The notes under the pieces were generated by a model, which did not search any database, had not been told where the DNA came from, and saw only the letters and a list, made by a program, of their open reading frames with translations. The position numbers were made by a program, and so were the translations under genes. From Bacteroidota bacterium (GTDB taxonomy: Bacteria > Bacteroidota > Ignavibacteria > UBA10030 > UBA6906), in NCBI GenBank assembly GCA_035687895.1, contig DASRUE010000044.1, positions 3,555 to 67,554 on the forward strand: a DNA stretch of 64,000 nucleotides, read 5' to 3'. Positions 1 to 56,474 of this stretch are shown here, one piece after another (within the stretch, counting starts at the first letter, position 1; the number at the start of each line of letters is the position of its first letter).

Positions 1-361
1 GCCCGTAATTCGGAATCAATGTGTATCCGTTCCTTTTGTACAGTCCAATAGCTTCCGGCTGTTTTTTCCCCGTCTCTAATACACACTTTGCATACGATAA
101 TTCGCTTGCCCAATGTTCCAGTTCAGAGAGGATTTTTGTGGCGATCCCCTTGTTTCTGCTCCCAGGCTCAACGTACATGCGTTTGATTTCCATTGTATTC
201 GTCCCATACTCTTTTATGGCTCCGCAACCCAACGGTTTTTCATTTTCATACGCGAGGACGACATACTTGATGTTGTCGATCGTATTGAATTGAGCGTAGA
301 AGGAATGCTCTTCACCGTCCCTTTGTGCAAGGTCCGCGTCAAGTAATTTCACAAGTTCCAT
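1..361 (-). CDS. GNAT family N-acetyltransferase (3' end runs off the window start)
   Basis: This ORF is absent from the ORF track because it has no stop inside the window. The reverse complement from ATG 361-359 reads MELVKLLDADLAQRDGEEHSFYAQFNTIDNIKYVVLAYENEKPLGCGAIKEYGTNTMEIKRMYVEPGSRNKGIATKILSELEHWASELSYAKCVLETGKKQPEAIGLYKRNGYTLIPNYG. It has the acetyl-CoA loop RNKGIATKIL and the YKRNGY tail typical of the GNAT fold. Confidence 0.8.
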   Translation of the reverse strand, partial: MELVKLLDADLAQRDGEEHSFYAQFNTIDNIKYVVLAYENEKPLGCGAIKEYGTNTMEIKRMYVEPGSRNKGIATKILSELEHWASELSYAKCVLETGKKQPEAIGLYKRNGYTLIPNYG

Positions 362-427
362 AAAATCGTGATTATCAGAATTGGTTCTGATGATGTCTAT
401 CATATCCGCTATCTATTCTCGGGTGAC

Positions 428-571
428 GCACAACGTGTGCGCAAACTACGGCACGCACTCCACGCTCTTTATGATTGCGTGCAGCGTGGGGCGAACTCTA
501 CTGAGTTCGCTCCAGTTGCTTTGACCGAGCCTTATCAAATTTTTGAGCGACGTAGTTTGTCGCTGTTATGC
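428..571 (-). mobile_element. attC-like recombination site of the 584..1141 cassette
   Basis: Window + strand: GCACAAC(428-434)-GTGT-GCG-CAAACTACG(442-450) ...100 nt... CGTAGTTTG(551-559)-T-CGC-T-GTTATGC(565-571). The site starts 12 nt after the TGA stop. The R box pairs 6/7 (G.T wobble on the - strand). The L stem is 3+9 bp with a bulged T, and the centre is structured (hairpin 491-510). Confidence 0.6.
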
Positions 572-583
572 GCAGCGCAAGGG

Positions 584-1141
584 TCAATTGTTATAGAGTG
601 TTCCCTTCTGATAAAGTGTGTGAACTCTGAACAGCGTTCGTTCGACGTCGCGTGCGCCAACTTTGTACTTATTGGCAAAGTATCTGAGAATCATCAGATA
701 CCGATACCACTGCTTGAAATCAAATCCCATTCCGTCAGCATTCGTCTTGACGGCACCCATTTTGTAAAGGAGTTGCCAAACTCGAATGTCAATGACACCG
801 TAACGTGTTGGATTGGTAAGCATCAGAATCGAAGATGCCATCGGGACACTGACGCCGTAGAGACTCGTGAGTTGAGACAGTTTCTCTTGCTCACTACGAG
901 TTGCGAACGCTGCTCTTGTAATGTTCTTGATCGTATCTGCACGGTTACGACGAATATGCTTAATCGCTCGCGGCGATTTCCACCGACAAACCTTCACTAA
1001 CTCGGGTTTGGTCAGATAACCCCGCTTTCTTGAACGAGACAATTCATCGATGACCCTCTGAGTGGGAGACCACTCCTTAGTAGAAAGATGAATTCCTATC
1101 AGATGCTGTAATCGTTTGTATGGAAGTTTCTTGAGTGGCAT
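584..1141 (-). CDS. helix-hairpin-helix protein, OGG/AGOG-like DNA-glycosylase fold (function unverified); gene cassette
   Basis: 185-aa ORF. It has the HhH-like motif LTSLYGVSVPMASSILMLTNPTRYGVIDIRVW, preceded by LTKPELVKVCRWKSPRAIKHIRRN. This pattern recalls small OGG-fold proteins. attC-like sites flank it on both sides. Confidence 0.6.
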   Translation of the reverse strand: MPLKKLPYKRLQHLIGIHLSTKEWSPTQRVIDELSRSRKRGYLTKPELVKVCRWKSPRAIKHIRRNRADTIKNITRAAFATRSEQEKLSQLTSLYGVSVPMASSILMLTNPTRYGVIDIRVWQLLYKMGAVKTNADGMGFDFKQWYRYLMILRYFANKYKVGARDVERTLFRVHTLYQKGTLYNN

Positions 1142-1165
1142 GGATAACCTTTCATTTGCGTTGCA

Positions 1166-1298
1166 GCATAACGCGTGCAGGCATTACGCCGGTTGTTTTG
1201 CTGCTATGAACGACTCATTCTTTTTGCGGCAAAACAAATGGAGCGCCCACAATTGTTCTCTTACAAAAAATGGAACGTCGTAATGACTGCTGTTATGC
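1166..1298 (-). mobile_element. attC-like recombination site of the 1293..2312 cassette
   Basis: Window + strand: GCATAAC(1166-1172)-GCGT-GCAG-G-CATTACG(1182-1188) ...90 nt... CGTAATG(1279-1285)-A-CTGC-T-GTTATGC(1292-1298). The R box is a perfect 7 bp, the spacer is asymmetric, and the L stem is 4+7 bp. There is an inner 9-bp hairpin (1193-1201 / 1229-1237). The TAA stop of the ORF lies inside the R'' box. Confidence 0.65.
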
Positions 1299-2312
1299 GA
1301 CGTTTGCGGCAACATCATACTGTAATCTTGTTGTTAGTTCATTTTCGAATCGAGAAACAAAGGGAACTCTATCAATCACGTGGACTTCAAATCTTCTTCT
1401 TACATTGCCGCCCGTTTTGAGACCAAGATCTTCAGCCGTTGTGTAGGTTAGCAAGTTCGGAATTGGACCTAGGAATGCATCGGGAAGCTCATCACGCAGG
1501 CGAGCGAAAGGCAGTTTTTCAAGACTACAAATGATGAGCTTCTCCTTGATGATGCGTTTGGAGCTGAGTCCCACGGCAAAACCAATCTCTTCAAAGACCT
1601 TACTTCGGATGTGATAGTAATTTTGCATTATCGCCTGTAATCTTGCCTTGTGGAATTTCGAGCCGATGTAGAGTGTGGCGACAACAGACTCGTGCTTGTC
1701 ACGTTTAGATGCAACAATGGGAAATACTACGCCCTCAATCGGCTTCACTTCTCTGAGATTGATACGCCGAAGCGTTTTCTTTGAAACTGTAACCAGTTGT
1801 TCTATTCTCGTCCTTATAGGGAGAATGGAAAATGCTGAGGTGTCCCTTTTCTCCTGAAGTTTAGCCTCAACGCTTGCTTTGAGCGGTCGTGTGACATAAT
1901 TGATTCTGCGGAGCAAGCGCTTTTTAAAGGTTGAGTCATCGTGACTACGCCAAGTCACGATATTTTTCATCTGCAAATGGAAATGCACCCGCAGGTTGCC
2001 TTTTGGGTCATCGGTGCGTGGTTTAAGATGGTCCACACGGCAAGTGTATATAACGGGAATCGACCTCTCAGCAAAGCCAGCCTCATAGTAGACGGAAGGA
2101 CGAGCAAAAGATAGATCAGCAACGACAAAGTCAGCATCTAGGATTTCATTGATGATTCTGTTATTGAGATCGTCATTATGCTCAATTCTGATCATGCATC
2201 TGGGAATGACCTCTGCTCTATGCAGCGTCGGCAAAAGAGACTTCTTGAGCAGGAGTTCTGTCTGCTTATCACTGAAGGACATAGCCACAAAGCATTTGAG
2301 TTTACTGGACAT
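1293..2312 (-). CDS. nucleoside 2-deoxyribosyltransferase-like/TIR-like N-terminal domain protein with uncharacterised ~220-aa C-terminal domain; gene cassette
   Basis: 339-aa ORF. The N-terminus reads KCFVAMSFSD ... DADFVVADLS ... RPSVYYEAGFAERSIPVIY (Glu77), the signature pattern of the NDT/TIR-like Rossmannoid fold. I recognise nothing in the C-terminal two thirds. Confidence 0.6.
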   Translation of the reverse strand: MSSKLKCFVAMSFSDKQTELLLKKSLLPTLHRAEVIPRCMIRIEHNDDLNNRIINEILDADFVVADLSFARPSVYYEAGFAERSIPVIYTCRVDHLKPRTDDPKGNLRVHFHLQMKNIVTWRSHDDSTFKKRLLRRINYVTRPLKASVEAKLQEKRDTSAFSILPIRTRIEQLVTVSKKTLRRINLREVKPIEGVVFPIVASKRDKHESVVATLYIGSKFHKARLQAIMQNYYHIRSKVFEEIGFAVGLSSKRIIKEKLIICSLEKLPFARLRDELPDAFLGPIPNLLTYTTAEDLGLKTGGNVRRRFEVHVIDRVPFVSRFENELTTRLQYDVAANVA

Positions 2313-2337
2313 TGATATCGTCTATATTTAGTACTTG

Positions 2338-2359
2338 GTTGCCGCAAATGACGCATAAC
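2338..2359 (-). repeat. GTTATGC core (R'-type) plus 15-nt flank; inverted copy (20/22) of 1292..1313
   Basis: The reverse complement of 2338-2359 is GTTATGCGTCATTTGCGGCAAC, against GTTATGCGACGTTTGCGGCAAC at 1292-1313. It lies 40 nt upstream of the ATG of the 1293..2312 ORF and marks the 5' boundary of that cassette. Confidence 0.6.
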
Positions 2360-2412
2360 TACTGGCTTAACGACACTGTGTCGTACTTACATGTGCCGGG
2401 TAGAGGATATGC
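2353..2412 (-). other. short degenerate attC-like or junction site at the right end of the array
   Basis: GCATAAC(2353-2359)-TACT-GGC-T-TAACGACAC(2368-2376)-T-GTGTCGT(2378-2384)...GCC(2395-2397)...GATATGC(2406-2412). The pairings are nested but the bulges are large and the R box pairs only 6/7. Confidence 0.25.
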
Positions 2413-2520
2413 GACACTCTGTCTTGTCTAATTCGCTTCTGCATGCGGGCTCCTCAATGTAGAGAACCCCTTCGGAAAATCCAATTGGTTTCTTAGCCGG
2501 TTCTGTACGCGCGTCCCTAT

Positions 2521-3486
2521 TCAATCCCTGCGTCTTAGAAGACAAAACAAATGATACCTTCCTCTTCGCAAATCGGAAGAAGCGAGCTTCTTCCGCAGAG
2601 CGTTCATTGCAACAAACCCCGGGACGTGCCTGATTGCCCGTCTCACAGTTCTTTTCCAGCCTCCTGCGTGTGAGCCGGAGAGCCGGGCGACGTTCTCCAG
2701 TCGCGGTGTTCCCAGACTCTCCAAGTGTACAATTTCGAAACCCAGGTCTTGCGCAATGACACCGCATGTGCGGGAGGAAAGATACTGCATGTGCTCAAGA
2801 TCGACACGTAGCTGGACTGGATCGCGTTCCTCAAGGAGGAACGAACCGTTCGGCGTCCAGATGGAGAGAAGTCCGCCCGGCGCAAGGATGGAGCGTGCCT
2901 TCTTCAGGAGCGACAGCGGGTCGAGGGGATGCTCGATCAGGTCATGGAAGGTGATAAGGTCATACGGTTGGTCCGGGGTGAAGTCGAGGAGATCGAGTTG
3001 ATGGATTTCTGAAATGCCAAGGTGACTTCGTGCAAAATCAACAGCCTCCGGGTCGAGATCGATGCCGGCTACGCGCCCGCCGAGTTTTCTCAGCAGCACC
3101 ATCGTCAATCCGATCCCAAACCCGACGTCGAGTGTGCGGGCATTTGCAAGCCTCATGGTTGTGGCGATCTCACGTACTTTGACGTCCGTAAATGGATCCA
3201 TGGCCAGCATTTCCCTCAAGAGAGATGTATCATGCAGGTATTGCTGCATCTCCACCTTCCGATGGTTAGCATAATAGCGGGAGTATAGGTCGTTGAGCGC
3301 TTGAGCTGAAGGTGCGGGCGAGACGAAGAACGCTCCACAGGCGGAACAGGATCGCACGTGCAGGCGATCAGGGCGGATGAATTTCTCTTCCCCTTCGGAT
3401 GAACAGAAGGGGCATCGTCGCGGATGAAGGCGAGCATGGTCACACGGTGGGATACGGGCGTCAAGCGGAGGAAGGGGAGAGATCAT
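2521..3486 (-). CDS. class I SAM-dependent methyltransferase with N-terminal Cys4 zinc ribbon
   Basis: It has motif I LDVGFGIGL and the zinc ribbon CPFCSS...CSACG. The start is placed at the internal ATG (MISPLPP...) of the 2521..3645 ORF, so the exact start is uncertain. Confidence 0.75.
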   Translation of the reverse strand: MISPLPPLDARIPPCDHARLHPRRCPFCSSEGEEKFIRPDRLHVRSCSACGAFFVSPAPSAQALNDLYSRYYANHRKVEMQQYLHDTSLLREMLAMDPFTDVKVREIATTMRLANARTLDVGFGIGLTMVLLRKLGGRVAGIDLDPEAVDFARSHLGISEIHQLDLLDFTPDQPYDLITFHDLIEHPLDPLSLLKKARSILAPGGLLSIWTPNGSFLLEERDPVQLRVDLEHMQYLSSRTCGVIAQDLGFEIVHLESLGTPRLENVARLSGSHAGGWKRTVRRAIRHVPGFVAMNALRKKLASSDLRRGRYHLFCLLRRRD

Positions 3487-3669
3487 CGAAATCAAAAGCG
3501 TCCCATGGTTGCTGGTGCTGCAAAAGCTAATCAACCCCATGGAGATTATCAACTGGATTTCTCTTCTGGTACCCCACTTCTCGCCGTTTCTATTGCTTCT
3601 TGCAAAGAGAAGTGATAGAATTGTCCAGTATTCCGATGCATACATTCACAGAACAAGGAGAAAGCAGAC

Positions 3670-4212
3670 ATGTTACGAAGCCTGTTGGTCACGATCGCAC
3701 TTTTGCTTCTTGGAACGATGTCGTTCGCCCAGACGCCCATTCATGCCGGAAAGGTCGGGCTGGGGATCGACGGGGTCAGTTCGCCCAACCTGATCCTGAA
3801 GTACTTCTTCAATAACCAGCTCGCGGGGCAGGTGATTGTTGGTGTTGAATTCGACTCACCCGGCGGTGACGCTCCACTGGGACTGACGAAGGTAACGGGG
3901 ACAACGTTCCGCGGCGGGCTCTCTTTTCTTTATCATCTGACGCAGACGCAGATGTCGACGTACATTGGTGTGGAAGGGATTTTTCAGTCGGCGCAAATGG
4001 CGGGGTTCTATGTCCAGGAGCCGGATCGGAAGAGCAGTGTTATGGGTGGTGCGGTGCTGGGCGGTGAGTACTTCATCCACGATCAGTTCACGCTCGGGAT
4101 CAAGCAAATGCTCGGACTGGACGTACAACTGAAACGCGATAATCCGGCGGAATCGTCAGATGTAAGGTTTGCAACATCGACTGTGGTGACAGGCCGGTTC
4201 TATTTCGACTGA
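3670..4212 (+). CDS. small outer-membrane beta-barrel protein
   Basis: It has a signal peptide (MLRSLLVTIALLLLGTMSFAQ), alternating beta-strand pattern and an aromatic C-terminus (GRFYFD). Confidence 0.65.
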   Translation: MLRSLLVTIALLLLGTMSFAQTPIHAGKVGLGIDGVSSPNLILKYFFNNQLAGQVIVGVEFDSPGGDAPLGLTKVTGTTFRGGLSFLYHLTQTQMSTYIGVEGIFQSAQMAGFYVQEPDRKSSVMGGAVLGGEYFIHDQFTLGIKQMLGLDVQLKRDNPAESSDVRFATSTVVTGRFYFD

Positions 4213-4965: not shown

Positions 4966-6354
4966 GTGGATCCCATCGCAGGCCCAACAGGGTTCAACAT
5001 TTATCTGGTTGGCGCCCTTCCATTCATGCTTGCTCTGTCGGTGATGTTATATTATCGACGGAAAGAGCGTCGGGAAAGGTTGGCCACCTTTTCCTGCTCC
5101 GACAAGACGTTCCGGGTTGTGGTCTGCATCGCGGTTCTTGTGTCGACGGGAGGGTTCTGGCTCCTTGAATACAACAAACCGGTTGAGACGCTTTGGGATG
5201 CCTACTATGCCCGGGCGCTGAACATGGTGACGTACGGTGTGTTTGGGTACGGCAATGAGCCGACCGCATTCTTTCCTCCCGGCTACTCCATGTTGCTCCT
5301 TCCATCCGTTGTCGTGCTGGGCCATTCGAAGTGGGCGATCTTCGGGACGAACATGACCTTGCTGCTCGTCGCAGTGTTGGGGTTCCGTTGGTGTCTCCGC
5401 TCGATGCTGTTGAGTACTCACCTTGCGAATATTCTGTCATTGTTTCTTCTTCTGTATCCGACGCGGTTCTTTTCAACATACATCCCATTGTCGGATATAC
5501 CGTTCTCATTGTTTGCGCTGGGAGCATTTGCTTCGATGCTGTTGGTCATCATGAAGAAGGGCGGGACGGCGGCTGTAGTATCGGCAGCTCTCTTCGGCGG
5601 TACCGCGGCGCTCATCCGGCCGAACGGATTGTTCTTGTTCATCCCCATTGCTATCGGTATTGTGTACGCCTCGTCCGCCGGAACTCGTCTGCAGCAATGC
5701 GCAATCCTCAGCGGCGTATTCCTCACCGTGCTTCTGCCGTGGACAGTGCGGAATGTGAATCTGTATGGCACACTCGTTCCGGTTTCCACGAATGGCGGAT
5801 ATAATCTTCTTGCAGGCAACAATCCCACCCGTAGTATCTATGGAGGATACTATCCGGACGTCCTGCTGCAGCGGTCCGGTCAACCCGAATGGAACGAAGC
5901 ACAACGTGACGACTTCTGGTTGCGTGCCGGGATCGCGGAAATCGTTCATGACCCACCAGGGTTTGCGCTGCTGGGCGTCAGGAAAATCATCAGGACATTC
6001 TCTTCCGATACACACAGCCTTGGCGCGCTGCGCGTCCATACCAACGTGGGACAGCTTCCCGGCTGGTTTCTCGCGTTTCTCTATGCGCTCAACAATTTTC
6101 TCTATTATGTTTTTGGACTAAGTCTCCTCGCGACGATCTGGCGACGGTGGAACGAATATGATGTTGTGCGACTGATCTTCATCCTGACGTCAGTAATCGT
6201 TGCCGGGATGGTGTTCGTCTTGTTCGGAGCACCGAAATACAAAGAGCCTTTGAGTACCATCGCCCTCGCCGTCATTGGCGTGTACCTGTCCACGCTCCCT
6301 TATTGCAGGTCTGATCATTACTCCAAATCCTCATTCACAAGGAGCCCTTCGTGA
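4966..6354 (+). CDS. polytopic membrane glycosyltransferase, GT-C type (ArnT/PMT family 39/83-like)
   Basis: 462 aa with more than 10 predicted TM helices and the loop FFPPGYSMLL after the first helices. GTG start. Its stop overlaps the next gene's start. Confidence 0.55.
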   Translation: MDPIAGPTGFNIYLVGALPFMLALSVMLYYRRKERRERLATFSCSDKTFRVVVCIAVLVSTGGFWLLEYNKPVETLWDAYYARALNMVTYGVFGYGNEPTAFFPPGYSMLLLPSVVVLGHSKWAIFGTNMTLLLVAVLGFRWCLRSMLLSTHLANILSLFLLLYPTRFFSTYIPLSDIPFSLFALGAFASMLLVIMKKGGTAAVVSAALFGGTAALIRPNGLFLFIPIAIGIVYASSAGTRLQQCAILSGVFLTVLLPWTVRNVNLYGTLVPVSTNGGYNLLAGNNPTRSIYGGYYPDVLLQRSGQPEWNEAQRDDFWLRAGIAEIVHDPPGFALLGVRKIIRTFSSDTHSLGALRVHTNVGQLPGWFLAFLYALNNFLYYVFGLSLLATIWRRWNEYDVVRLIFILTSVIVAGMVFVLFGAPKYKEPLSTIALAVIGVYLSTLPYCRSDHYSKSSFTRSPS

Positions 6355-35397: not shown

Positions 35398-36069
35398 CTA
35401 TTCCTCTTTGATCACATAGCCAACACCCCGAACGGTGTGGATGAGTTTCTTTTCCGCGCCGCTGTCAATCTTATTGCGGAGATGGTTCACATACACGTCG
35501 ATGATGTTCGTTCCGGTGTCGAAGTTGTAGTCCCAGATGTGCTCGGAGATAAGTGTCCGGCTGAGCACACGGTCCCTATTCCGGAGAAAGTACTCAAGCA
35601 ATGCATATTCCTTGGCGGTGAGCTCGATGAGCCGTCCCGCTCGTTTGGCTTTGTGCGTGACGGTGTCTAATTCCAGGTCAGCCATCGCGAGGACAGTGGA
35701 TTTTTCCTTTCCCCCGCGACGGAGAAGGGAACGGACGCGGGCAAGAAGCTCGGCGAATGCGAATGGTTTGGTCAGGTAATCATCAGCGCCGCTATCGAGC
35801 CCTGCAACCTTATCATCCGTCGCACTTTTCGCCGTGAGCATGAGTGCGGGCGTGGTTCCCTTCCGCGCACGGAAGACCTTGATCACCTCCAGACCATTCT
35901 TCTTTGGTAGCATGACATCGAGGATGAGGAGATCGTATTGTTCGGATTCCGCCATCAACAATCCCTTCTCTCCATCATGGGCAACATCAACGGAGTAATG
36001 TTCTTCTTCCAACCCCTGCCGAATGAAGCTGGCGACTTTCTTTTCGTCTTCGACAAGGAGAATACGCAT
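35398..36069 (-). CDS. OmpR-family response regulator
   Basis: MRILLVEDE...DLLILDVMLP receiver domain and a winged-helix C-terminus (VRGVGYVI). Confidence 0.9.
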   Translation of the reverse strand: MRILLVEDEKKVASFIRQGLEEEHYSVDVAHDGEKGLLMAESEQYDLLILDVMLPKKNGLEVIKVFRARKGTTPALMLTAKSATDDKVAGLDSGADDYLTKPFAFAELLARVRSLLRRGGKEKSTVLAMADLELDTVTHKAKRAGRLIELTAKEYALLEYFLRNRDRVLSRTLISEHIWDYNFDTGTNIIDVYVNHLRNKIDSGAEKKLIHTVRGVGYVIKEE

Positions 36070-38722: not shown

Positions 38723-40002
38723 TGGAAACCGTTCTCATCGGCATTGGACTTGTTCTGCTCGCATTGTTCGGGGCGCCGCTCTTTGCCATCATTGGTGCGA
38801 TCGCCATGATGAGTTTTGCGGCGGAGGGCATCGATCCCTCGGTGGTGATTGTGGAACTCTACCGCATAGGGAGCAACCCAACACTCGTTGCGATTCCTCT
38901 TTTCACTTTTGCCGGCTACGTGCTGGCTGAAAGCAAGGCGCCGACTCGGCTGGTGAACCTTGCGCGTGCATTCTTCGGATCAATACCAGGAGGGCTCGCC
39001 GTTGTCGCGCTGGTGACGTGCGCTCTTTTCACGGCATTCACAGGGGCGTCGGGTGTTACGATTGTTGCCCTGGGCGGACTCCTCTATCCCATTCTGCTCA
39101 AAGAACAATACCCGGAGCGTTTTTCGCTCGGGCTTATCACCACGTCCGGGAGCCTCGGGCTGTTGTTCCCGCCAAGCCTCCCGCTGATCCTCTATGCGCT
39201 GGTGGCAAAGATCAGTATTGATAAGCTGTTTGCGGCAGGGATCATCCCGGGAATACTCCTTGTGGTTCTCCTTGCGGGGTACGCCATCTTCCAGGGGAAA
39301 AAGCTGCGTGTGCCCAAAACCCCATTCACATGGTCGAACGTATTCACGACGATGCGTGTGGCTGCCTGGGAAATTCCGCTCCCGGTTCTGATTATCGGCG
39401 GCATCTACGGTGGCTTTTTCACTGCAACCGAGGCCGCGGCGGTGACTGCGTTCTATGTTCTGGTGGTGGAAGTGTTCATCCACAAGGACCTCAACCTCTT
39501 CAAGGATATTCCGCGGGTCATGAAGGATAGCATGCTGCTCGTCGGTGCCATCCTGATGATCATCGGGGCGGCGATGGGGTTGACAAACTACCTGGTCGAT
39601 GAAGAGGTACCGATGAAACTTTTCGAGCTGACACGAACGTTTATCTCCAGCCCTATAGCATTCCTCATTGTGTTGAACATCTTCCTCATCATTGTTGGAA
39701 TGATGATGGACATCTTCTCCGCAATCATTGTGGTGGTCCCCCTGATCCTCCCGATCGCGACGGCGTACAACATCGAGCCGGTCCATCTTGGCATTATCTT
39801 CCTCACCAACCTTGAGATCGGTTATCTCACACCTCCTGTCGGGCTCAACCTCTTCATCTCCAGTATCCGTTTTCAGAAGCCGGTCTTCACGGTTGTGCGA
39901 GGTACGCTTCCGTACATTGCCATCCTTGTCGTTGCACTCATAATGATAACTTATGTACCCAACCTAAGCCTTTGGCTCGTGAACGCCCTGAACGTCCGTT
40001 AG
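38722..40002 (+). CDS. TRAP transporter large permease (DctM family)
   Basis: 426 aa, polytopic, with a typical DctM pattern (FTGASGVTIVALG, EIGYLTPPVGLNLF). Confidence 0.85.
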   Translation: METVLIGIGLVLLALFGAPLFAIIGAIAMMSFAAEGIDPSVVIVELYRIGSNPTLVAIPLFTFAGYVLAESKAPTRLVNLARAFFGSIPGGLAVVALVTCALFTAFTGASGVTIVALGGLLYPILLKEQYPERFSLGLITTSGSLGLLFPPSLPLILYALVAKISIDKLFAAGIIPGILLVVLLAGYAIFQGKKLRVPKTPFTWSNVFTTMRVAAWEIPLPVLIIGGIYGGFFTATEAAAVTAFYVLVVEVFIHKDLNLFKDIPRVMKDSMLLVGAILMIIGAAMGLTNYLVDEEVPMKLFELTRTFISSPIAFLIVLNIFLIIVGMMMDIFSAIIVVVPLILPIATAYNIEPVHLGIIFLTNLEIGYLTPPVGLNLFISSIRFQKPVFTVVRGTLPYIAILVVALIMITYVPNLSLWLVNALNVR

Positions 40003-40084
40003 GATCAGAGCAGGCCATTCGTTGGTTTGTGTTTTCGCAAAAAGATCATATATTGAATCCAGTGGCCAGTCCGGATTTTGTTCA

Positions 40085-40432
40085 ATGCTTCGAATGATAC
40101 GCTACATATCGCTTAGCTTGTTCTCCTGCGTGTATCTTGCTGTCTCGCTTGCGGGCCTGCTTGGTACCATGAACTTGCCGGCTATCTCCTCAGGACCGCA
40201 GGGGTTCGCTTCTGCCACTGCGAGCACTAAAGAGAAACCCAAAGTTGTTTGGACGCAACGTCGCCATATTCCGTTGGTCAAGACGTTTACTGTTCCAGTT
40301 GAGACCGCATGTACCATCGAGTTTCCATCTGATGTCCACCAATATTCCCTTGTTCCTCGATACACACACAGCGTTTCATATCTTTCCCTCTACTTCTCTT
40401 CTGTCGGTGATCGGGCTCCTCCCGTAGCCTAA
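40085..40432 (+). CDS. hypothetical membrane-anchored protein
   Basis: It has one N-terminal hydrophobic segment (ISLSLFSCVYLAVSLAGLL) and no recognisable domain. Confidence 0.35.
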   Translation: MLRMIRYISLSLFSCVYLAVSLAGLLGTMNLPAISSGPQGFASATASTKEKPKVVWTQRRHIPLVKTFTVPVETACTIEFPSDVHQYSLVPRYTHSVSYLSLYFSSVGDRAPPVA

Positions 40433-40655
40433 GCTCTCCACATTTATCTCCATTCTTCTACCGAGGAAGTTCCGGCTGAAGCAGTGCTGTTGTACCACTT
40501 CGGCATCGAACTTTCCGAATAGAAAACGTTCTCTAAGAACGTGACGCTCACCCTGCTATCAGTCGAATGTGGAGGTGCATTTTTTGATCATTGTGTGGGG
40601 AAAAGACAACGGGGCGTCAACGAATCCATTCTGTATTCTCAAGGAGGGTTTGATT

Positions 40656-40931
40656 ATGGCACATATTCAGAGTAAACCGGTTCATGATTCCGAGGCTCAG
40701 CACAAAAAGAACTTTCAGGCAGTCAACGCCAAAAGTCCCGCTGCAGACAGTAGTCATCGATCTCATCAAACGGAAGCAACACACGCTGACAACACATTGG
40801 CCCATCGACCTATTGAGGAGGCATCTCATGAGTTCGAGATTTTGGGATGCCCCTGGCAGTTTGTCGCGGTGATAGGAGCAATAGCTGTTGGAATACTTGG
40901 CCTTGTGCTAAAGTCGATCGGATTGTTCTAG
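40656..40931 (+). CDS. hypothetical His-rich tail-anchored membrane protein
   Basis: AAGGAGGG lies 7 nt before the ATG. There are 8 His in the first 60 aa and a single C-terminal TM helix (FVAVIGAIAVGILGLVL). Confidence 0.5.
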   Translation: MAHIQSKPVHDSEAQHKKNFQAVNAKSPAADSSHRSHQTEATHADNTLAHRPIEEASHEFEILGCPWQFVAVIGAIAVGILGLVLKSIGLF

Positions 40932-41014
40932 GCAGAAGGGAAAGCCCCTTTTGGCGGGACACCAGCCACTAGCGAAGGCCGACGTGAGTTGTTTTTTCCT
41001 TAAGAGGAACTGTC

Positions 41015-41434
41015 ATGAAAATCTCGATCATGGATGCAAGCGAATACCTTAGGGGATTACTCTTGCTTATCAGGAAGGACCGAAAAATTACTGAAGCGGA
41101 AAATCGATTGATGAAACGAATCGGCAAAACTCTAAAGTTTGAAAGAGAATTCTGTGACAACGCAATTTGTGAAATTCTTGAAAACAAACACATCCTGGAC
41201 GCACCTCCTGAATTCTCGACCGATGAATTGGCGATGAGGTTTATCAAAGACGGCTTGACTTTGGCATTCTCCGATAAGGATGTCCCAGCGTTTGAGGCTG
41301 AATGGCTGAGGTCTATCGCGGAGATAAACGGGCTTGACGAAGAATGGTTCATTCGAGAATGGGCAAACGCCTCAAATAGAAAAGACGTTCCTGTTCATTT
41401 GGAAGTGGATGATTTGTCCGTGGAATATTCCTGA
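41015..41434 (+). CDS. TerB-like (tellurite-resistance TerB/DjlA-N fold) protein
   Basis: Two helical repeats of the type GLLLLIRKDRKITEAENRLMKRI / FIKDGLTLAFSDKDVPAFEAEWLRSIA. This is pattern recall only. Confidence 0.45.
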   Translation: MKISIMDASEYLRGLLLLIRKDRKITEAENRLMKRIGKTLKFEREFCDNAICEILENKHILDAPPEFSTDELAMRFIKDGLTLAFSDKDVPAFEAEWLRSIAEINGLDEEWFIREWANASNRKDVPVHLEVDDLSVEYS

Positions 41435-41812
41435 CTTTAGTACGTTCACAATAGTTTCGGTATGGTCCTGAAAGTGGGTGCGCGAATATGGAATCCGCAT
41501 ACATGAAGTTCAAGACTTCGAGCGCCTCATGAGGCCGATGGTTCTGGAATTCGCTGTTCAAGAAAACACCCACGAATCACTATTACAGAGGGAAGAATAA
41601 TCCATAAGCACTTCCGGACTCGTATTGATGATCTTTAGTATGGTCATATATAGTCATCACATTAGTATATCTGTTTTCCAAGTTGCTGAGAAAAGAGAGG
41701 GAGAAGAAACGCGCGGAGGAGGCTCGTGACAACGGGTGAAACGGCTACGTATGTTGTTTGCGTGCTTGCGGGAATATCGCCGTCGTGACAGCAATGGAGG
41801 ATTCATTAGGAC

Positions 41813-42898
41813 ATGCCAATCCTTGATCAACAGTACTTGGGAAATACTCTACACACGTGGCTGATAGCTTGTGGAATCACGGTCGCCAGCCATCTCATTC
41901 TGAAGGCCGCTCAATGGCTCGTTGCCCATCGGCTCTCCAAGGTCACGAAAGCCACGAAGACCCAGTTGGACGATTTCGCCGTTGAGGTCATCAAGAAAAC
42001 ACGTTTCTTCTTCCTGTTCACGGTGTCGTTATACGCCGGCTTAAGCATACTTTCCCTGTCAGCAGCGACGCAGCGAACGGTGGATACCATCATCATTCTT
42101 GCGCTGCTGCTGCAGAGTGGCATGTGGGTGAGCGGGGCAATCTCGTTCTGGCTTGGTCAGACGATCAAGCAAAGGATGGAAGAGGACGCCGCCAGCGCCA
42201 CAACGCTTACCGCACTTGGATTCATCAGCAGACTGATGTTGTGGGCTGTTGTGCTGCTGGTTTCTCTAGATAACGTTGGCATCGACATTACCGCACTTGT
42301 CACCGGCCTCGGAATAGGCGGCATCGCGGTGGCATTGGCGTTGCAGAGCATACTTAGTGATCTCTTTGCCTCCCTTTCAATCGTCCTTGATAAGCCGTTT
42401 GTCATCGGTGATTTCATCATCATCGACGAGCACCTGGGAACGGTTGAATATATCGGATTGAAGACGACGCGGCTCCGCAGTCTCTCCGGTGAACAAATCG
42501 TGTTCTCCAATGGAGATCTGTTGAAGAGCAGGATCCGTAACTACAAGCGGATGTACGAACGTCGCGTCGTCTTTGCCGTTGGCATCACGTACCAGACACC
42601 GTACGAAAAGATCGCCGCCGTGAGCTCGCTTCTGCGACAGATTGTTGAGTCGCAGCCGCACGTTCGCTTCGACCGCGCACACTTCAAGGAATATGCGGAT
42701 TCATCGTTGAACTATGAGGTGGTATACTACGTTTTGAGCCCGGACTACAACACGTATATGGATGTTCAGCAGGCAATCAATTTAGAAATCTATCGTCGGT
42801 TTGAACGTGAACGGATCGATTTTGCATATCCAACACGCACAGTGTATATTCACAGACCGGGTCCCACCACGGCATCCGAGGACGGACTTGAAGGATGA
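41813..42898 (+). CDS. mechanosensitive ion channel, MscS family
   Basis: It has N-terminal TM helices and the pore-helix/beta-domain motif ALQSILSDLFASLSIVLDKPFVIGDFI. Confidence 0.85.
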   Translation: MPILDQQYLGNTLHTWLIACGITVASHLILKAAQWLVAHRLSKVTKATKTQLDDFAVEVIKKTRFFFLFTVSLYAGLSILSLSAATQRTVDTIIILALLLQSGMWVSGAISFWLGQTIKQRMEEDAASATTLTALGFISRLMLWAVVLLVSLDNVGIDITALVTGLGIGGIAVALALQSILSDLFASLSIVLDKPFVIGDFIIIDEHLGTVEYIGLKTTRLRSLSGEQIVFSNGDLLKSRIRNYKRMYERRVVFAVGITYQTPYEKIAAVSSLLRQIVESQPHVRFDRAHFKEYADSSLNYEVVYYVLSPDYNTYMDVQQAINLEIYRRFERERIDFAYPTRTVYIHRPGPTTASEDGLEG

Positions 42899-42921
42899 CG
42901 CATGCAAGGAGGAAGTAAACC

Positions 42922-43563
42922 GTGACCGCCTTTCACTTCTATACCAAGCTGGATCAAACTCTTCTCCTGGGGAAAAAAGCAAGAAATGCCCCCGGCCTGT
43001 TGGAGGGGATCAGGAGTGTCCCTGAGTCGAGCATCTACTACCACACCCACAGGTTTCTCCAGCAGCACCATTATCTCTCACCTGAACCTCCCAACGACTT
43101 TGCCTATTGGGTTACAGAGGTGTTGAGTGATGAAGTCCTGGGCGAGCAACTATCGAGCGTTGACACGATTCAATTCGAGAGCATCTCCACATTGAGGGAG
43201 AAATTCATCTTCCTGATCGAATCACATCTTGCTTCCGTGGAAAAGATAACAGACTGTTCTCACGGTGAAGAATTTCATTTCATGGCCTCACGCACGTTCG
43301 CACTGCCGACACCATATGTTGCTCAGAATCTTATCGAGTTCAGAGATGCACTTGGACGCGTAAGCGTGAATACGATATACTATCATATCTTTGACGCAAA
43401 GCTCAGATTGGAACGTGGCGAGAACGACTTCTCCAAATGGTTCGACACCAATGGGATGTCAACCCTTGCAGAGGAACTGAGGAAGTTGGATCCATACACA
43501 CACACCCTCGAAGGCTTGCGAAAACGCATCATTGTCCTGGTGAGAAAATATGATACGCATTGA
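42922..43563 (+). CDS. DUF5752-like protein (uncharacterised, trehalose-synthase associated)
   Basis: AGGAGG lies before the GTG start. The gene overlaps treT by 14 nt. The family assignment is from memory of TreT-linked hypothetical proteins and is not verified. Confidence 0.5.
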   Translation: MTAFHFYTKLDQTLLLGKKARNAPGLLEGIRSVPESSIYYHTHRFLQQHHYLSPEPPNDFAYWVTEVLSDEVLGEQLSSVDTIQFESISTLREKFIFLIESHLASVEKITDCSHGEEFHFMASRTFALPTPYVAQNLIEFRDALGRVSVNTIYYHIFDAKLRLERGENDFSKWFDTNGMSTLAEELRKLDPYTHTLEGLRKRIIVLVRKYDTH

Positions 43564-44767
43564 AGAGTACGCTGCCATTGTTGGTGAGGCCACCATTCAG
43601 GAACTTTTCCTTCTGGCCGAGCACTTGAAAGGGAAGGTCGTTCAGAACATCAATTCGACCGCAGTCGGCGGCGGCGTTGCGGAGATACTGACACGGATGA
43701 TACCGCTGCTCAAACAGCTTGGCATTGATGCGCGGTGGGATGTCATTAAAGGCAATGAGAAATTCTTTGCTATCACCAAGAAGTTTCACAATGGGCTGCA
43801 TGGCGTTCCAGTTGAGATCGCCGATGAAGAGTATGAGACGTTCTTGGAGGTGAACCGGGAGAATGCCGAACAGATGAACTTCGGCGATGTTGTTTTTGTG
43901 CATGACCCCCAGCCGATTGGGCTGATCGAGAAGCGAAAGGAATTGGGGAGGAATTGGATCTGGCGATGCCATATTGATTTCTCGAAACCAGATCCGAAGA
44001 TTTGGAAGTTTCTTGAGCAATATGTTTTCCAGTATGATTCGGCGGTGTTCTCCGCTCCATCGTTTGCACGTAAGCTTCCGATCCCGCAGGTGTTGATCTC
44101 GCCATCGATCGATCCATTGAGCGAGAAGAATAAGGAGATCCCGGAAGAAACAATTAACGCCGTCTTCGAGCGCTTTGGGATTGACCGCTCGCGACCCGTT
44201 ATTACCCAGATCTCCCGGTTCGATTATCTCAAAGACCCACTCGGTGTGATCAAGGCATACAAGATCGCAAAGAAGCGGGTGGACATGCAGTTGGTGCTTG
44301 CCGGAGGCGGTGCTACGGATGACCCGGAAGGACCAGTCATTATGCAACAGGTGAAAGAGGAAGCTGACAAAGACAAGGATATCTTTGCATTGTTCCTGCC
44401 ACCATCGAGTGATCTGGAGATTAACGCTCTCCAAAGGGGTTCCACGGTCGTTTTGCAGAAGTCCCTCAAAGAGGGATTCGGTCTTACCGTATCCGAGGCG
44501 CTGTGGAAGGGGAAGCCCACTATAGCTGGGGCTGTGGGTGGAATTCCGTTGCAGATTGCGCACAAGTATTCCGGCATCCTCACACATTCCATTGATGGGA
44601 CTGCCTACTGGATAAAGCAATTGGTAAACGAACCCGAATTCGCGCGGAAGCTTGGCGCGAACGGACGGGAACACATCAAGAACAACTTCCTGATCACGCG
44701 ACATATCAAGGACTATCTGTTGCTCTTCATCTCATTGTTTCATCAAGGCGGCATTGTCTATCTATGA
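43550..44767 (+). CDS. treT: trehalose glycosyltransferring synthase TreT-like (GT4)
   Basis: The N-terminus reads IEEYAAIVGEATIQELFLLAE...NSTAVGGGVAEILTRMIPLLKQLGIDARWDVIKGNEKFFAITKKFHNGLHG, characteristic of TreT. The C-terminal half is GT4. Confidence 0.75.
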   Translation: MIRIEEYAAIVGEATIQELFLLAEHLKGKVVQNINSTAVGGGVAEILTRMIPLLKQLGIDARWDVIKGNEKFFAITKKFHNGLHGVPVEIADEEYETFLEVNRENAEQMNFGDVVFVHDPQPIGLIEKRKELGRNWIWRCHIDFSKPDPKIWKFLEQYVFQYDSAVFSAPSFARKLPIPQVLISPSIDPLSEKNKEIPEETINAVFERFGIDRSRPVITQISRFDYLKDPLGVIKAYKIAKKRVDMQLVLAGGGATDDPEGPVIMQQVKEEADKDKDIFALFLPPSSDLEINALQRGSTVVLQKSLKEGFGLTVSEALWKGKPTIAGAVGGIPLQIAHKYSGILTHSIDGTAYWIKQLVNEPEFARKLGANGREHIKNNFLITRHIKDYLLLFISLFHQGGIVYL

Positions 44768-47037: not shown

Positions 47038-47038
47038 C

Positions 47039-47066
47039 GGCATTCTTATGAATGCCATTCTGATCG
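47039..47066 (+). terminator. candidate Rho-independent terminator after otsAB
   Basis: A GGCATTC/GAATGCC 7-bp stem with a TTAT loop is followed by ATTCTGATCG. The T tract is weak. Confidence 0.45.
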
Positions 47067-47104
47067 TTCGGCGCAACATTTCTTGAGTGCAAGGAGCGTT
47101 TTGC

Positions 47105-47788
47105 ATGCTGCTGACCTCTCTCCTCGGTTATGCCATCAGAGCCACCAATGGCGACATCGGAGAGGTGAATGATTTCTTATTCGAAGATGACACATGGGTT
47201 TTGAAATACTTCGTCGTGAAGACCGGCACATGGCTCCATGGTCGCAGAGTTCTCATAACACCATCGGCCCTGGGCCAACCGGACTGGTCGTCGCATGGCC
47301 TTCCGGTGAAACTGAACCGAAGAGAGGTGCAGAACAGTCCCGACATCAATGCTGACATGCCCGTGTCTCTTCAGCAACTGACCTTGCTGCACGAATACTA
47401 CGGATGGCCTGCATACGCTGCAGGGACTGGATTCGCTTACATACCGATGGCTCCTCCGCAGTTCACTGAGCAAGAGAAAGAGCAGCTTGCGGCAATAGAG
47501 AAAGCAAGTGATCCACACCTGCGCAGCGCCCGCCACGTGACCGGTTACCGCATGCAAGCAATTGATGGCGAAATCGGTCATGTGGATGATTTCATTCTGA
47601 ACAACGAGTCCTGGCTGATATCTTCTCTTGTGGTCGATACCGGAAAGTGGCTGACCGGAAAGAAAGTTCTGATCTCACCGCGATCGATAAGCGTAATTAG
47701 CTGGGGTGAAAGAATGGTGCATGTCGACCTTACCACTGATGCTGTAAAGAATAGTCCAGAGTATGAACCGACAACACCTGAATCTTGA
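47105..47788 (+). CDS. PRC-barrel domain protein (two PRC barrels)
   Basis: The pattern G(Y)x(I/M)xAxDGxIGxVxDFxxxxxxWxxxxxVVxTGxWLxGxxVLISP occurs twice. AAGGAG lies 8 nt before the ATG at 47105. Confidence 0.75.
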   Translation: MLLTSLLGYAIRATNGDIGEVNDFLFEDDTWVLKYFVVKTGTWLHGRRVLITPSALGQPDWSSHGLPVKLNRREVQNSPDINADMPVSLQQLTLLHEYYGWPAYAAGTGFAYIPMAPPQFTEQEKEQLAAIEKASDPHLRSARHVTGYRMQAIDGEIGHVDDFILNNESWLISSLVVDTGKWLTGKKVLISPRSISVISWGERMVHVDLTTDAVKNSPEYEPTTPES

Positions 47789-47850
47789 GTATGAGGGACA
47801 ACTCTGCGATTATCGTGGCTGCCCCGAGCGATGACGCCGAATGAGGATAT

Positions 47851-49131: not shown

Positions 49132-49246
49132 GAGTCTGGAGCCCTTCGAACATAGTTGCTCTTTGAACGTCTTGCTATTCATCCTGCTGATTCGTTGTTT
49201 TGGAAAATTCATCCCACGACTACTTCCATAGTCACAAGGACAGAAT

Positions 49247-49395
49247 ATGAGGAAGCGGCTCACTGAGCAAACCATCCTCTTCTCAAACATTACGAAAGGG
49301 TTGTCCTGGCGGCAGGGGTTGGCACAATCGTAGGATTGTCCACAATGGGCTTTCTGAAACTGCTGGCACGGGCACCCGAAGTCAGCAACCAGTGA
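49247..49395 (+). pseudogene. possible decayed membrane-protein gene fragment (ClC-channel-like N-terminus?)
   Basis: MRKRLTEQTILFSNITKG (frame of 49247) continues as VVLAAGVGTIVGLSTMGFLKLLA only after a 1-nt shift at the GGG run near 49298-49300. A stop follows at 49393-49395, and no full-length ORF exists in the 404-nt gap. Confidence 0.25.
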
Positions 49396-49535
49396 TTGGG
49401 CTTGTGAGACTGATGGCAGAGGTGGCAAATGTGTCGATTGCCGCCAGCATTCTCTCGGTCAAGGTGTTTGGTTGCGATAGCGCCTCACCGATACGATGCT
49501 TCGCTGTCCCGTCCAAATAGTGCCATAGACTGCAT

Positions 49536-50996: not shown

Positions 50997-51097
50997 TCAG
51001 ATGAAGACTGCGCACCAAGTCACCGCGTGGGGAGTCACTCTTCAAATGCTGGAAAAGATTTGCTATTATGATGCTATCACTTGCCGAGAAACCTCCC

Positions 51098-54020: not shown

Positions 54021-54145
54021 TACCTGGTAAACGAAAGATTCGTTCTCAAATGCCACGTTCCCTCAGCGAAGGAAGAGGTATGAGTTGCACCGAGAAGTGA
54101 TTACAATGAGTCTGTAGCACAATCCCGGGCTTTAGATGGACCGCC

Positions 54146-56176: not shown

Positions 56177-56196
56177 ACCTATGGCAACTGTAGATC

Positions 56197-56376: not shown

Positions 56377-56474
56377 TGTTGTGCTGGTTTCTTTCTCAAG
56401 ATAACATGCCTGCGGGAAAAAACAAGGCGTTTGCAAGTCGGAACACTTTTTTCCTTATTTACCACCGACCGGTC

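Follow-up and report, generated by a model that had tools for sequence, protein, structure and literature searches.

The left-hand end of the stretch of DNA analysed here (64,000 nucleotides in all, hereafter the window) very probably carries a short cassette array of the integron type that lacks an integrase, that is, a CALIN, which occupies positions 1-2471 together with approximately 100 nt beyond the left edge and belongs to an uncultured Ignavibacteriota-like chromosome. This locus is a fairly ordinary orphan cassette cluster that has a few unusual details; the three-cassette CALIN of an Ignavibacteriota-like genome is new, and this kind of element is already known. The evidence supports integron-type cassettes, all of it stopping short of an integrase, and the tie between the repeat family described below and the integron integrase (IntI) is one that we infer. 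Read along the minus strand, the locus would consist of an attI-like leader ending in G|TTATGC followed by three cassettes, namely an NDT/TIR-like gene with a 133-nt attC (cassette 1), an HhH-glycosylase-like gene with a 144-nt attC (cassette 2) and a GNAT gene with a vestigial 18-nt site (cassette 3). The features are the following:

1-403, minus strand: GNAT acetyltransferase gene of cassette 3; 134 of its 150 codons (the N-terminal ones) lie in the window, and the 3' end is past the left edge
428-571, minus strand: attC-like site 1, 144 nt; R'' GCATAAC, R' GTTGTGC (gene strand)
584-1141, minus strand: gene of cassette 2, HhH-GPD-like, 185 aa (from the ORF list and predicted structure)
1166-1298, minus strand: attC-like site 2, 133 nt; R'' GCATAAC, R' GTTATGC (gene strand)
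1293-2312, minus strand: gene of cassette 1, NDT/TIR-like, 339 aa (from the ORF list and predicted structure)
2353-2359, minus strand: GTTATGC core (R box), the 5' boundary of cassette 1 (from the sequence and the homology breakpoint)
2353-2471, minus strand: attI-like leader with direct repeats, common to three array starts

The original prediction had described three consecutive minus-strand genes, of which the ORFs 584-1141 and 1293-2312 and the partial GNAT gene are indeed found, followed at or just after the stop codons by imperfect palindromes of 133-144 bp with the outer ends GCATAAC...GTTATGC or GTTGTGC on the coding strand. Such palindromes, with the ends GCAYAAC...GTTRTGC, are present at 428-571 and 1166-1298; the TAA stop of the 339-aa ORF falls within R'' of site 2, and the stop of the 185-aa ORF is separated from R'' of site 1 by 12 nt. 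Both sites possess the complementary ends of attC (RYYYAAC/GTTRRRY) with the AAC and GTT conserved, and the exactness of these triplets, also part of the prediction, extends to all 27 distinct sites of the family to which the palindromes belong. Each 7-mer had been said to contain a non-consensus base; the A of GCATAAC is not unusual given that this is the exact R'' of the class 1 cassettes blaVIM-2 and arr-3. The window contains 124 NNNNAAC...GTTNNNN pairs if up to one mismatch is allowed, and when these are ordered by folding energy per nucleotide, the two sites take the top two places. The fold of the plus strand, which is the presumed recombinogenic bottom strand of each site and had been suggested as a check, is more stable as DNA than that of the minus strand, at -37.4 vs -35.8 kcal/mol for site 1 and -30.4 vs -22.2 kcal/mol for site 2 (plus-strand z-scores of -4.9 and -3.8, respectively); for attC sites, a greater stability of the folded bottom strand relative to the top one has been reported (nucleotide skew; PMC5027507).

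In the plus-strand hairpin, the 7-bp R box would be separated by an internal loop of 4/1 nt from an L stem of 12 bp, beyond which the arm opposite AAC would carry a bulge, the tip being variable. In these details the sites depart from the canonical attC, in which the unpaired central spacer spans approximately 5-6 nt on each arm and single extrahelical bases lie opposite the AAC arm, two or three in number (in the bottom strand, a G and then a T past the 6-bp stem; PMC5027507), whereas here the unpaired spacer is 4 nt vs 1 nt (GTGT/T), with one bulged T in site 1 and a G/A mismatch in site 2. Instead of pairing inside one palindrome, GTTGTGC and GCACAAC, the variant 7-mers, stand on either side of the GNAT unit. 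Neither the window nor the key loci gave matches in Rfam and tRNA scans. A scan of positions 1-3800 for sigma-70 promoters and terminators gave counts no higher than chance, and no T-tract terminator is present on the coding strand of the sites.

So do these two sites have relatives in other genomes? A pattern scan reveals a family of approximately 35 repeats, 125-200 nt in length, in other metagenomes and in Chlorobi/Ignavibacteria MAGs, and the family profile matches the 64 kb at these two places only (site 1, 84.8 bits, E 1e-24; site 2, 72 bits, E 1e-20). The arms of site 1 have near-identical counterparts in the sites of L207, and site 2 has a homologous site in L210/L214. The family sites are arranged on the same strand in arrays, the largest of which has 7 or more copies (at least 7 sites in L207/L227 and 3 each in L201, L202, L209, L212 and L215), in which the cargo is varied, including a restriction-modification pair, a PLD nuclease, an FRG domain protein, an HSDR_N protein and unknowns. 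A same-strand ORF ends within -12 to +80 nt of 32 of the 35 sites, and 32 sites are co-oriented with the upstream gene vs 1 that is not. Members of the family were not found in viral contigs. Separately, two genomes that matched the search pattern, L219 and L220 (Longimonas, Rhodothermales), proved to be chance matches rather than family members.

The structure of the family sites is backed by covariation. Across the 27 distinct sites, 94% of the R-box cells and 90.7% of those of the 12-bp inner stem are paired, the latter compared to 27-55% in slid controls; changes on both sides occur in 10 of the 12 inner-stem pairs, and there are 72 compensatory cells in this stem vs 24 in shuffles, with none of the 500 shuffles reaching the observed value. 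Thus, as in attC, there is a second paired region that is conserved in structure rather than in sequence. The presumed bottom strand is the more stable one in 24 of the 27 sites (mean difference 2.7 kcal/mol), and across the family the 12-bp stem gives way to a bulge of 4-5 nt (AGYGW) in the arm that faces AAC. The polarity of the unpaired bases is canonical: beside the R box it is the AAC arm that has more of them, and deeper in the hairpin it is the other arm that bulges. Internal sequence motifs, for example CATTTGGTAAGG, are common to the family sites.

A covariance model (CM) built from 11 class 1 attC sites recovers all class 1 sites, held-out ones included, and fails to detect the sites in the window, which score below the threshold even with the filters off. 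A search of this kind had been proposed as a check on the attC assignment, and neither site gave a hit; this does not refute the attC reading because the same model also misses every other environmental array tried (L017, L207 and L224).

The cassettes are modular. The GTTATGC at 2353-2359 (minus strand), 40 nt upstream of the first gene, is the complement of the R'' of cassette 1, GCATAAC, and when this cassette is compared with homologous cassettes of 77% and 53% identity, the homology starts exactly at this core and spans GTTAWGY to R'' only. NDT-like cassettes of 77%, 53% and 41% identity are found in other contexts or arrays, and P0005 (array L017), P0003 and P0004, which are homologues of the 339-aa protein, have the same cassette boundaries; more distant NDT-like homologues on the long contigs L196, L197 and L199 do not lie within cassette arrays. 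The HhH gene has a homologue of 83% identity that is a cassette in the long array L224, where G|TTAGGC lies 23 nt before the ATG and GCCTAAC 12 nt past the stop, the respective distances here being 24 and 12 nt. Cassettes 1 and 2, then, run from TTRRRY through an ORF to their own attC and have homologues in other contexts with boundaries at G|TT, in the manner of gene cassettes, which contain one ORF or, rarely, two. Arrays whose sites are of the canonical RYYYAAC/GTTRRRY type also contain the same cargo genes, and in one such array there is a Cass2 gene typical of integrons. An allele of the locus, L200, is a mosaic in which the first two cassettes are 99% identical to those described here and the GNAT unit approximately 87% (DNA), the break falling inside site 1, which in this allele is truncated and has a degenerate GTC core. 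In the closest NDT homologue (L023), R'' is mutated to GCATGAC.

The labels initially given to the genes hold up, with one correction. The partial GNAT ORF matches Pfam Acetyltransf_1 (E 4e-17), and the gene is real; its start had been placed at 361 and the next ORFs accordingly 24-66 nt after each GTT core. Contigs that extend the window show the full 150-aa gene (L002 5571-6023) with the start at window position 403, and the same N-terminus is kept in the divergent allele L200, so that the GNAT gene begins 24 nt past its GTT core, not 66. The 185-aa protein of cassette 2, with more than 1000 homologues at 60-88% identity, is a putative DNA glycosylase of the HhH-GPD-like type: its AlphaFold model (pLDDT 92.9) resembles HhH-GPD 8-oxoguanine glycosylases, with Ogg2-type enzymes as the best PDB matches (E 1e-3, TM ~0.5), which agrees with the HhH label. 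The 339-aa protein of cassette 1 combines an N-terminal nucleoside 2'-deoxyribosyltransferase/TIR-like domain with a C-terminal domain of unknown function; in keeping with its NDT/TIR-like label, the predicted structure of the N-terminal domain matches NDT, MilB, DNPH1 and TIR folds in Foldseek (E 1.6e-4), and there are a profile match to PDB 2a0k (E 0.09) and a hit to the PADLOC TIR effector (E 0.012).

The array block had been judged by eye to be AT-rich, which the computed values bear out: the GC content is 0.464 and 0.449 in the first two kilobases vs 0.49-0.57 in nearly all other 1-kb bins, and approximately 45-46% for the array block vs approximately 53% elsewhere. The original prediction allowed for either the distal part of a chromosomal integron or a CALIN and supposed that the array continues off the left edge. 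It does not: the array stops just beyond this edge, the GNAT gene being the last cassette, and a leftward search for more sites yielded, past the rest of that gene, only an 18-nt mini-palindrome (a vestigial site, R''-N4-R') followed by housekeeping genes (rhomboid, amidohydrolase and others). Because these features come right after GNAT, the locus does not represent the far end of a large chromosomal integron, and of the two original alternatives the CALIN is the one that stands. The 18-nt mini-site, when sought at other array ends, did not recur. The same three genes are present in all eight contigs of the same strain, among which no excision or empty-site allele was seen. A comparison with related genomes, suggested earlier as a means to detect presence or absence of cassettes, shows that the genes are absent from the locus in relatives of about 70-75% protein identity; in those retrieved with the M1 peptidase at 67-75% identity, the neighbourhoods have neither the cassettes nor the methyltransferase nor the rhomboid gene at the locus, and an amidohydrolase query for synteny or an empty site gave only 32% matches. 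The relatives' neighbourhoods are too rearranged for an empty site to be defined. One M1 peptidase relative encodes a rhomboid homologue elsewhere in its 20-kb locus.

As predicted, no integrase was found in the window: a tblastn search of the 64 kb with IntI1 found nothing better than E ~1, Pfam scans of approximately 30 large ORFs detected no Phage_integrase domain, and no integrase was found in the 19 kb to the left either. The same query found no IntI-like sequence in approximately 15 related loci of the family, no intI accompanies the homologous cassette on a 58-kb contig, and no other recombinase genes were found linked to the family arrays. When the largest array was walked to the longest contigs, no intI was encountered, the contigs in every case ending at an upstream repeat.

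The one intriguing feature of the locus is its right-hand boundary, which, judging by sequence, appears to be a conserved attI-like leader. On the plus strand, direct repeats lie at 2371-2382 and 2412-2423, and they are followed by GTTAAGC-CAGTA and then by GTTATGC; the overall pattern is ATAGACGCAAT, approximately 27 nt, ATAGACGMAAT, 12-28 nt and CAGTAGTTATGC. The same leader of approximately 100 nt precedes the first cassette in L217 and L202, where the flanks are unrelated; a profile of the three leaders detected no further copy in 227 loci, and none of the three has an intI within 1 to 60 kb. It is conceivable, if rather unlikely, that the leader is an orphan attI-type landing pad in a lineage where dispersed leader-array modules are served in trans, or else that leader-bounded arrays move as units. 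Under the trans version, each Ignavibacteriota/Chlorobi genome would hold several modules and a single integrase encoded elsewhere. If either version is true, the architecture of the integron would be a distributed one and CALINs would have been given a concrete origin, and if the leader is an attI used in trans, the question of CALIN origin becomes directly testable.

Could the palindromes and the array be explained without an integron? It seems very improbable to us that the palindromes are intergenic structured repeats (REP, ERIC, MITE-like, or transcript-stabilising or terminator hairpins) that spread into 3' untranslated regions and are unrelated to integron recombination. Such repeats could well be as long as these sites (125-200 nt), share internal motifs such as CATTTGGTAAGG, lack a linked integrase and be invisible to the class 1 attC CM. 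However, they would not be expected to end in the integron core with invariant AAC and GTT or to be co-oriented with the upstream gene in 32 cases vs 1, and an inserted repeat does not account for cassette homology that breaks exactly at G|TT and R'' or for mismatched 7-mers that pair across a gene and not within one palindrome; the lack of a T-tract terminator on the coding strand and the attC-like strand asymmetry of folding speak against this explanation as well. An independent, integron-like system, in which a site-specific recombinase of another tyrosine or serine type moves the arrays by acting on the 7-mer palindromic cores, is quite unlikely too. It would fit the absence of IntI from approximately 15 loci, the non-canonical site geometry, the conserved leader with its own direct repeats before three arrays, and the 18-nt R''-N4-R' palindrome at the array end, which resembles a simple double-stranded core site; yet no other recombinase gene is linked to the arrays either, the core is identical to those of bona fide attC sites, the same cargo occurs in canonical RYYYAAC/GTTRRRY arrays, one with a Cass2 gene, and integrons have already been reported in Chlorobi and Ignavibacteriae.

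The least probable account takes the block for a fossil, in which case it would be a small genomic island of the ordinary sort with decayed and inactive flanking repeats, and its array-like appearance would be only historical. The vestigial third site, the truncated site 1 of L200 with its GTC core, the mutated R'' of L023 and the identical gene order in all same-strain contigs are compatible with this notion, but sites 1 and 2 are full-length, score as high as the sites of large arrays, and keep perfect R boxes and stems. Moreover, a fossil state bears on present activity rather than on identity and is compatible with the CALIN explanation. Under the latter, the present copy may be largely frozen, given the decay of the last site and the lack of an integrase nearby. 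In terms of mechanism, an IntI-type tyrosine recombinase encoded elsewhere would cleave AA|C (G|TT on the top strand), whereupon cassettes could be excised as circles and reinserted; having no evident promoters, they would probably be read through from upstream.

In a broader context, the locus adds a well-delimited CALIN from a poorly sampled phylum and defines an attC family (approximately 35 sites with a covariation-backed structure) to which class 1-trained models may be ill-suited. Integron cassettes have recently been reported to stockpile anti-phage functions. Going by predicted functions, the cargo of this array, with its N-glycosidase/TIR-like and HhH-glycosylase-like proteins, fits these reports, and so do the restriction-modification pair and the PLD nuclease of the sister arrays.

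How does the array compare to the known systems? CALINs are clusters of attC sites lacking an integron integrase, as delineated by IntegronFinder (Cury et al., 2016, PMC4889954; Neron et al., 2022); they are about as common as complete integrons, and four possible routes have been considered for their origin, which is unsettled (Cury et al., 2016, PMC4889954). A complete integron, in which intI adjoins attI and the array, is not what we find here. Instead, provided that the sites count as attC, the locus has the composition of a CALIN, namely at least two attC-type sites that share a strand and lie within 4 kb of each other (the two full sites have 595 nt between them) with promoterless small ORFs in between, no intI nearby, few cassettes, and cargo unrelated to resistance cassettes. 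Unlike the defining hits of the IntegronFinder covariance model, these sites are assigned by other sequence and structure criteria, and unlike CALINs as described, the array keeps an attI-like leader and has a last site reduced to 18 nt. The sites share with the homogeneous attC families of sedentary chromosomal integrons, for example the Vibrio cholerae repeats (VCR, approximately 120-130 nt), their length, a branched variable tip, lineage-internal sequence in common, better folding of the bottom strand, and arrangement in arrays of many cassettes, mostly of unknown function; they differ in the host, which is in the Ignavibacteriota/Chlorobi group, in the family spacer of 4/1 nt vs 5-6 nt on each arm, in the clustered 4-5-nt bulge vs two or three single extrahelical bases, and in that no integrase-proximal end was recovered for any family array. 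With the class 1 attC sites (59-base elements, such as those of aadA1, blaVIM-2 and arr-3) they have in common the cores GCATAAC and GTTATGC verbatim and the order of gene and then attC, with stop codons in or beside R'', and they lack the class 1 geometry, in which the 7-bp R box is followed by a 5/6-nt spacer and 3 bp, and then by two extrahelical bases with 6 bp between them. Finally, the leader resembles attI1 (DR1, DR2 and a simple site ending in GTTRRRY) in having two direct repeats approximately 40 nt apart, and, as with attI, the first cassette starts at the leader core, GTTATGC; in contrast to attI, which adjoins its intI, the three putative leaders have no intI within 1 to 60 kb.

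Thus, we have to conclude that the original prediction of an integron-type array without an integrase is essentially right. The 2.4 kb at the left end of the window are a three-cassette cluster of attC sites lacking an integron integrase (CALIN) on an Ignavibacteriota-like chromosome. ORF calling gives three minus-strand ORFs in this region, with palindromes between them just as had been described:

Left window edge to 403, minus strand: GNAT acetyltransferase gene, partial (Pfam, E 4e-17)
428-571: site 1, imperfect palindrome of 144 nt, GCATAAC...GTTGTGC on the gene strand
584-1141, minus strand: 185-aa ORF (ORF call)
1166-1298: site 2, imperfect palindrome of 133 nt, GCATAAC...GTTATGC on the gene strand
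1293-2312, minus strand: 339-aa ORF (ORF call)
2353-2359: lone GTTATGC, lying 40 nt before the first gene (the 339-aa ORF)

The start of the GNAT ORF, originally placed at 361, has to be moved to 403 on the evidence of extending contigs and a variant allele, so that all three genes begin 24-40 nt past a GTT core. Folded as DNA, the plus strands of sites 1 and 2 yield z-scores of -4.9 and -3.8, and in folding energy per nucleotide the two sites rank first and second among the 124 AAC...GTT pairs with complementary 7-mers in the window. The AT-richness of the block, which had been noticed by eye, is real (GC 0.45-0.46 vs ~0.53 elsewhere in the window). A 136-nt AGGGAAC...GTTCCCT segment at 35726-35861, outside the repeat family, folds at about -29 kcal/mol on either strand, nearly equal per nucleotide to sites 1 and 2.

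What kind of sites are these? In the plus-strand orientation of the window, every family member runs through R' (GCMTAAC), GTGT, a 12-nt stem, a variable, often branched interior, AGYGW, the 12-nt stem complement, T and R'' (GTTAKGC). An arms-only alignment of 27 distinct family sites was tested for covariation. In this set, AAC and GTT are invariant, the 12-bp stem is 90.7% paired (27-55% in slid controls), both partners have changed in 10 of the 12 stem pairs, and 72 compensatory cells are observed vs 24.4 in shuffles, with none of 500 shuffles reaching the observed value. In 24 of the 27 sites the better fold is that of the plus strand, which is the bottom strand of the cassette, and stronger bottom-strand folding is a published property of attC (PMC5027507).

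A covariance model trained on 11 class 1 attC sites from plasmid integrons recovers every class 1 site, including the held-out estX, arr-3, gcuF and aadA16 and those with tips of ~50-60 nt, and gives no significant match on sites 1 and 2; with filters off, its only match at the window locus is an R-box-only hit of 8.6 bits to an 18-nt mini-site. The same model misses the environmental arrays L017, L207 and L224, although RYYYAAC/GTTRRRY cores of the textbook kind are present in two of them (L017 and L224), with a Cass2 gene in L224. Because all other environmental arrays tried are missed as well, the model is too narrow for its miss on sites 1 and 2 to be decisive.

As had been noted, the window contains no tyrosine recombinase: Pfam scans show none, and tblastn with IntI1 yields E-values of about 1 or worse. 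Nor was an intI gene found within 1 to 60 kb of three attI-like leaders (window, L217 and L202), in the 20 kb seen of L224, or within 9 kb on either side of the L229 cluster of attC-like sites. That the sites are linked to IntI we infer from their cores, from the way the arrays are organised, from where the cassettes begin and end, and from the integrons known in the Ignavibacteriota/Chlorobi clade. Between the two forms originally proposed, the distal part of a chromosomal integron and a CALIN, the lack of an integrase and the end of the array just past the window edge favour the CALIN. The locus does continue leftwards, as had been expected, in that eight same-strain metagenome contigs supply the rest of the GNAT gene (150 aa when complete) and an 18-nt palindrome, GCACAAC-AAGA-GTTATGC, the R' of which is GTTGTGC in one sample. 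The further cassettes that this continuation might have held are absent from these contigs; instead, rhomboid, amidohydrolase, DUF4199, DUF2085, CN-hydrolase and agmatine deiminase genes follow. No such palindrome turned up at the ends of other arrays; where a full site would otherwise stand, it may represent an attC that has collapsed, or a simple core site. The features that bound the array, with the matching leaders of two other arrays, are:

L002 (leftward extension) 6033-6050, ~60-75 nt past the left window edge, and L205 6693-6710: 18-nt palindrome
Window 2353-2471, minus strand: leader of ~100 nt
L217 5829-5932, plus strand: the same leader
L202 3815-3945, minus strand: the same leader

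At the right-hand boundary, no palindrome lies upstream of G|TTATGC in the window (fold z-scores -0.3 and -1.1); its place is taken by two direct repeats, ATAGACGCAAT-like and ~40 nt apart (41 nt in the window). This leader stands immediately before the first cassette in three genomic contexts that are unrelated to each other, following a Zn-dependent dehydrogenase gene with its terminator in L217 and ~1 kb without ORFs in L202, and has a common architecture: GCGARWTAGACG..., ~27 nt, ATAGACGMAAT, 12-28 nt, CAGTA-GTTATGC. Run against 227 loci, a profile built on these three leaders matched no further copy. With direct repeats followed by the core where cassettes start, as in attI, the leader looks, from the sequence of three examples, like an attI-like site. 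Such an orphan leader is a lead, and the element here that most deserves follow-up.

Just upstream of the leader (2521-3645, minus strand) is a SAM-dependent methyltransferase gene with a long N-terminal extension (374 aa vs 242 aa in another gene call), the match of which to PADLOC mad2 (mads_2, E 1e-15) is probably a generic methyltransferase-domain match. Otherwise the window encodes chromosomal housekeeping functions (SecDF, a SurA-like protein, TamB, RNase R, purA, trehalose genes and others), with SecD 71-77% identical to proteins from Ignavibacteriota-, Chlorobi- and Bacteroidota-labelled MAGs. GC is low (0.46-0.49) at 40-42 kb, within a region (40000-57000) whose genes include what looks like a set for osmoadaptation: an MscS channel, a TreT-like trehalose synthase, an OtsA-OtsB fusion, two Na+/H+ exchangers, an amino-acid permease with a Usp domain and a trehalase.

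The cassettes behave as modules. The variant 7-mers GTTGTGC and GCACAAC bracket the GNAT unit, and each one's own palindrome is internally mismatched; crossover at G|TT predicts exactly such pairing of cores across the gene. Being symmetric as to strand, this pairing, as read from the sequence, supports modularity, not orientation. In a variant allele of the locus (L200, 1-2023), identity to the window is 99% across the 339-aa (NDT-like) gene, site 2 and the 185-aa (HhH) gene but drops to ~87% in the GNAT gene. Site 1 of this allele is shortened to ~68 nt and its core has degenerated to GTCGAGC; it is inside this site that the mosaic breaks.

Homologues of the 339-aa gene at 77% (L023/L024) and 53% (L021) share similarity with the window from GTTAWGY to R''. 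L017 (1-9587), which opens with a 41% homologue, is a 15-gene co-oriented array with RCCTAAC...GTTAGGC sites in its intergenic regions, of an attC type (RCCTAAC-CAGGCGCTCCCCGC...CCGTTAGGC) that differs from the window's; several contigs all break at a repeat, 134 nt upstream of this homologue. A 36% homologue occurs in L197 (1-12652), a defence-island-like setting (PLD, Cas1-domain and SIR2-like genes) and not a cassette array. The 185-aa HhH gene has >1000 homologues at 60-88% identity. An 83% copy belongs to a long cassette-like array on a 1.9-Mb contig (L224, 1-20558; JGI Ga0645780_00004); the boundaries of this copy are G|TTAGGC, 23 nt ahead of the ATG, and GCCTAAC, 12 nt past the stop (24 and 12 nt in the window). 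An 81% copy, from a Bacteroidota MAG, stands alone and has no site. The L224 array has a third attC type, GCCTAAC-TTTGCGTAACAACGG...CGTCGTTACGTGATAC-GTTATGT, and its genes include Cass2, SnoaL, DoxX, glyoxalase, beta-lactamase-fold and DHFR-like ones. In L229 (8600-10740), related attC-like sites (GCCTAAC-AGCGGCTACACGG... and GCATAAC-AGGCAAAACAACG...GTTATGT) form a small cluster round two small genes in a housekeeping context.

The family itself is found in other arrays. A scan of JGI metagenomes with the pattern GCATAACAGC-N(100-130)-GCACRCGTTRTGC returned 17 loci, the window's own among them, and a profile made from these matches found ~35 distinct copies: at least 7 on one strand in L207/L227, and three each in L201, L202, L209, L212 and L215. 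In the genome collection, 'uncultured Chlorobi bacterium CHB1' has one copy, and an Ignavibacteria MAG has two weak matches. A same-strand ORF ends -12 to +80 nt from R'' at 32 of 35 sites; only an opposite-strand ORF abuts at one. The cargo varies between arrays: a DpnII-like endonuclease with a Dam-like methylase, inverted, a PLD nuclease, an FRG-domain protein, an HSDR_N-like protein, a 1210-aa T9SS-sorted protein and many unknowns. The inverted two-gene restriction-modification cassette (L227 8255-9623, minus strand, equal to L207 2634-4002, plus strand) sits within the 7+ site array and adjoins the PLD-nuclease cassette.

The model of the 185-aa protein (pLDDT 92.9) is nearest to Ogg2-type HhH-GPD 8-oxoguanine glycosylases (E 1e-3, TM ~0.5), and in that of the 339-aa protein (pLDDT 87) the N-terminal domain matches nucleoside 2'-deoxyribosyltransferase, MilB, DNPH1 and the TIR fold (E 1.6e-4). 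PADLOC models give no convincing match for any of the three cassette genes. The genes may plausibly act in defence or in nucleotide/DNA modification.

CALINs are a known kind of locus, of which the window array is a further example. Its attC sites belong to a lineage-specific family that is VCR-like and departs in geometry from class 1: the polarity of the asymmetry is shared with class 1 attC, with extra bases on the AAC arm by the R box and a bulge further in on the other arm, whereas class 1 sites, unlike those of the family, show a spacer of 5/6 nt and single extrahelical bases at a distance of 6 bp from each other.
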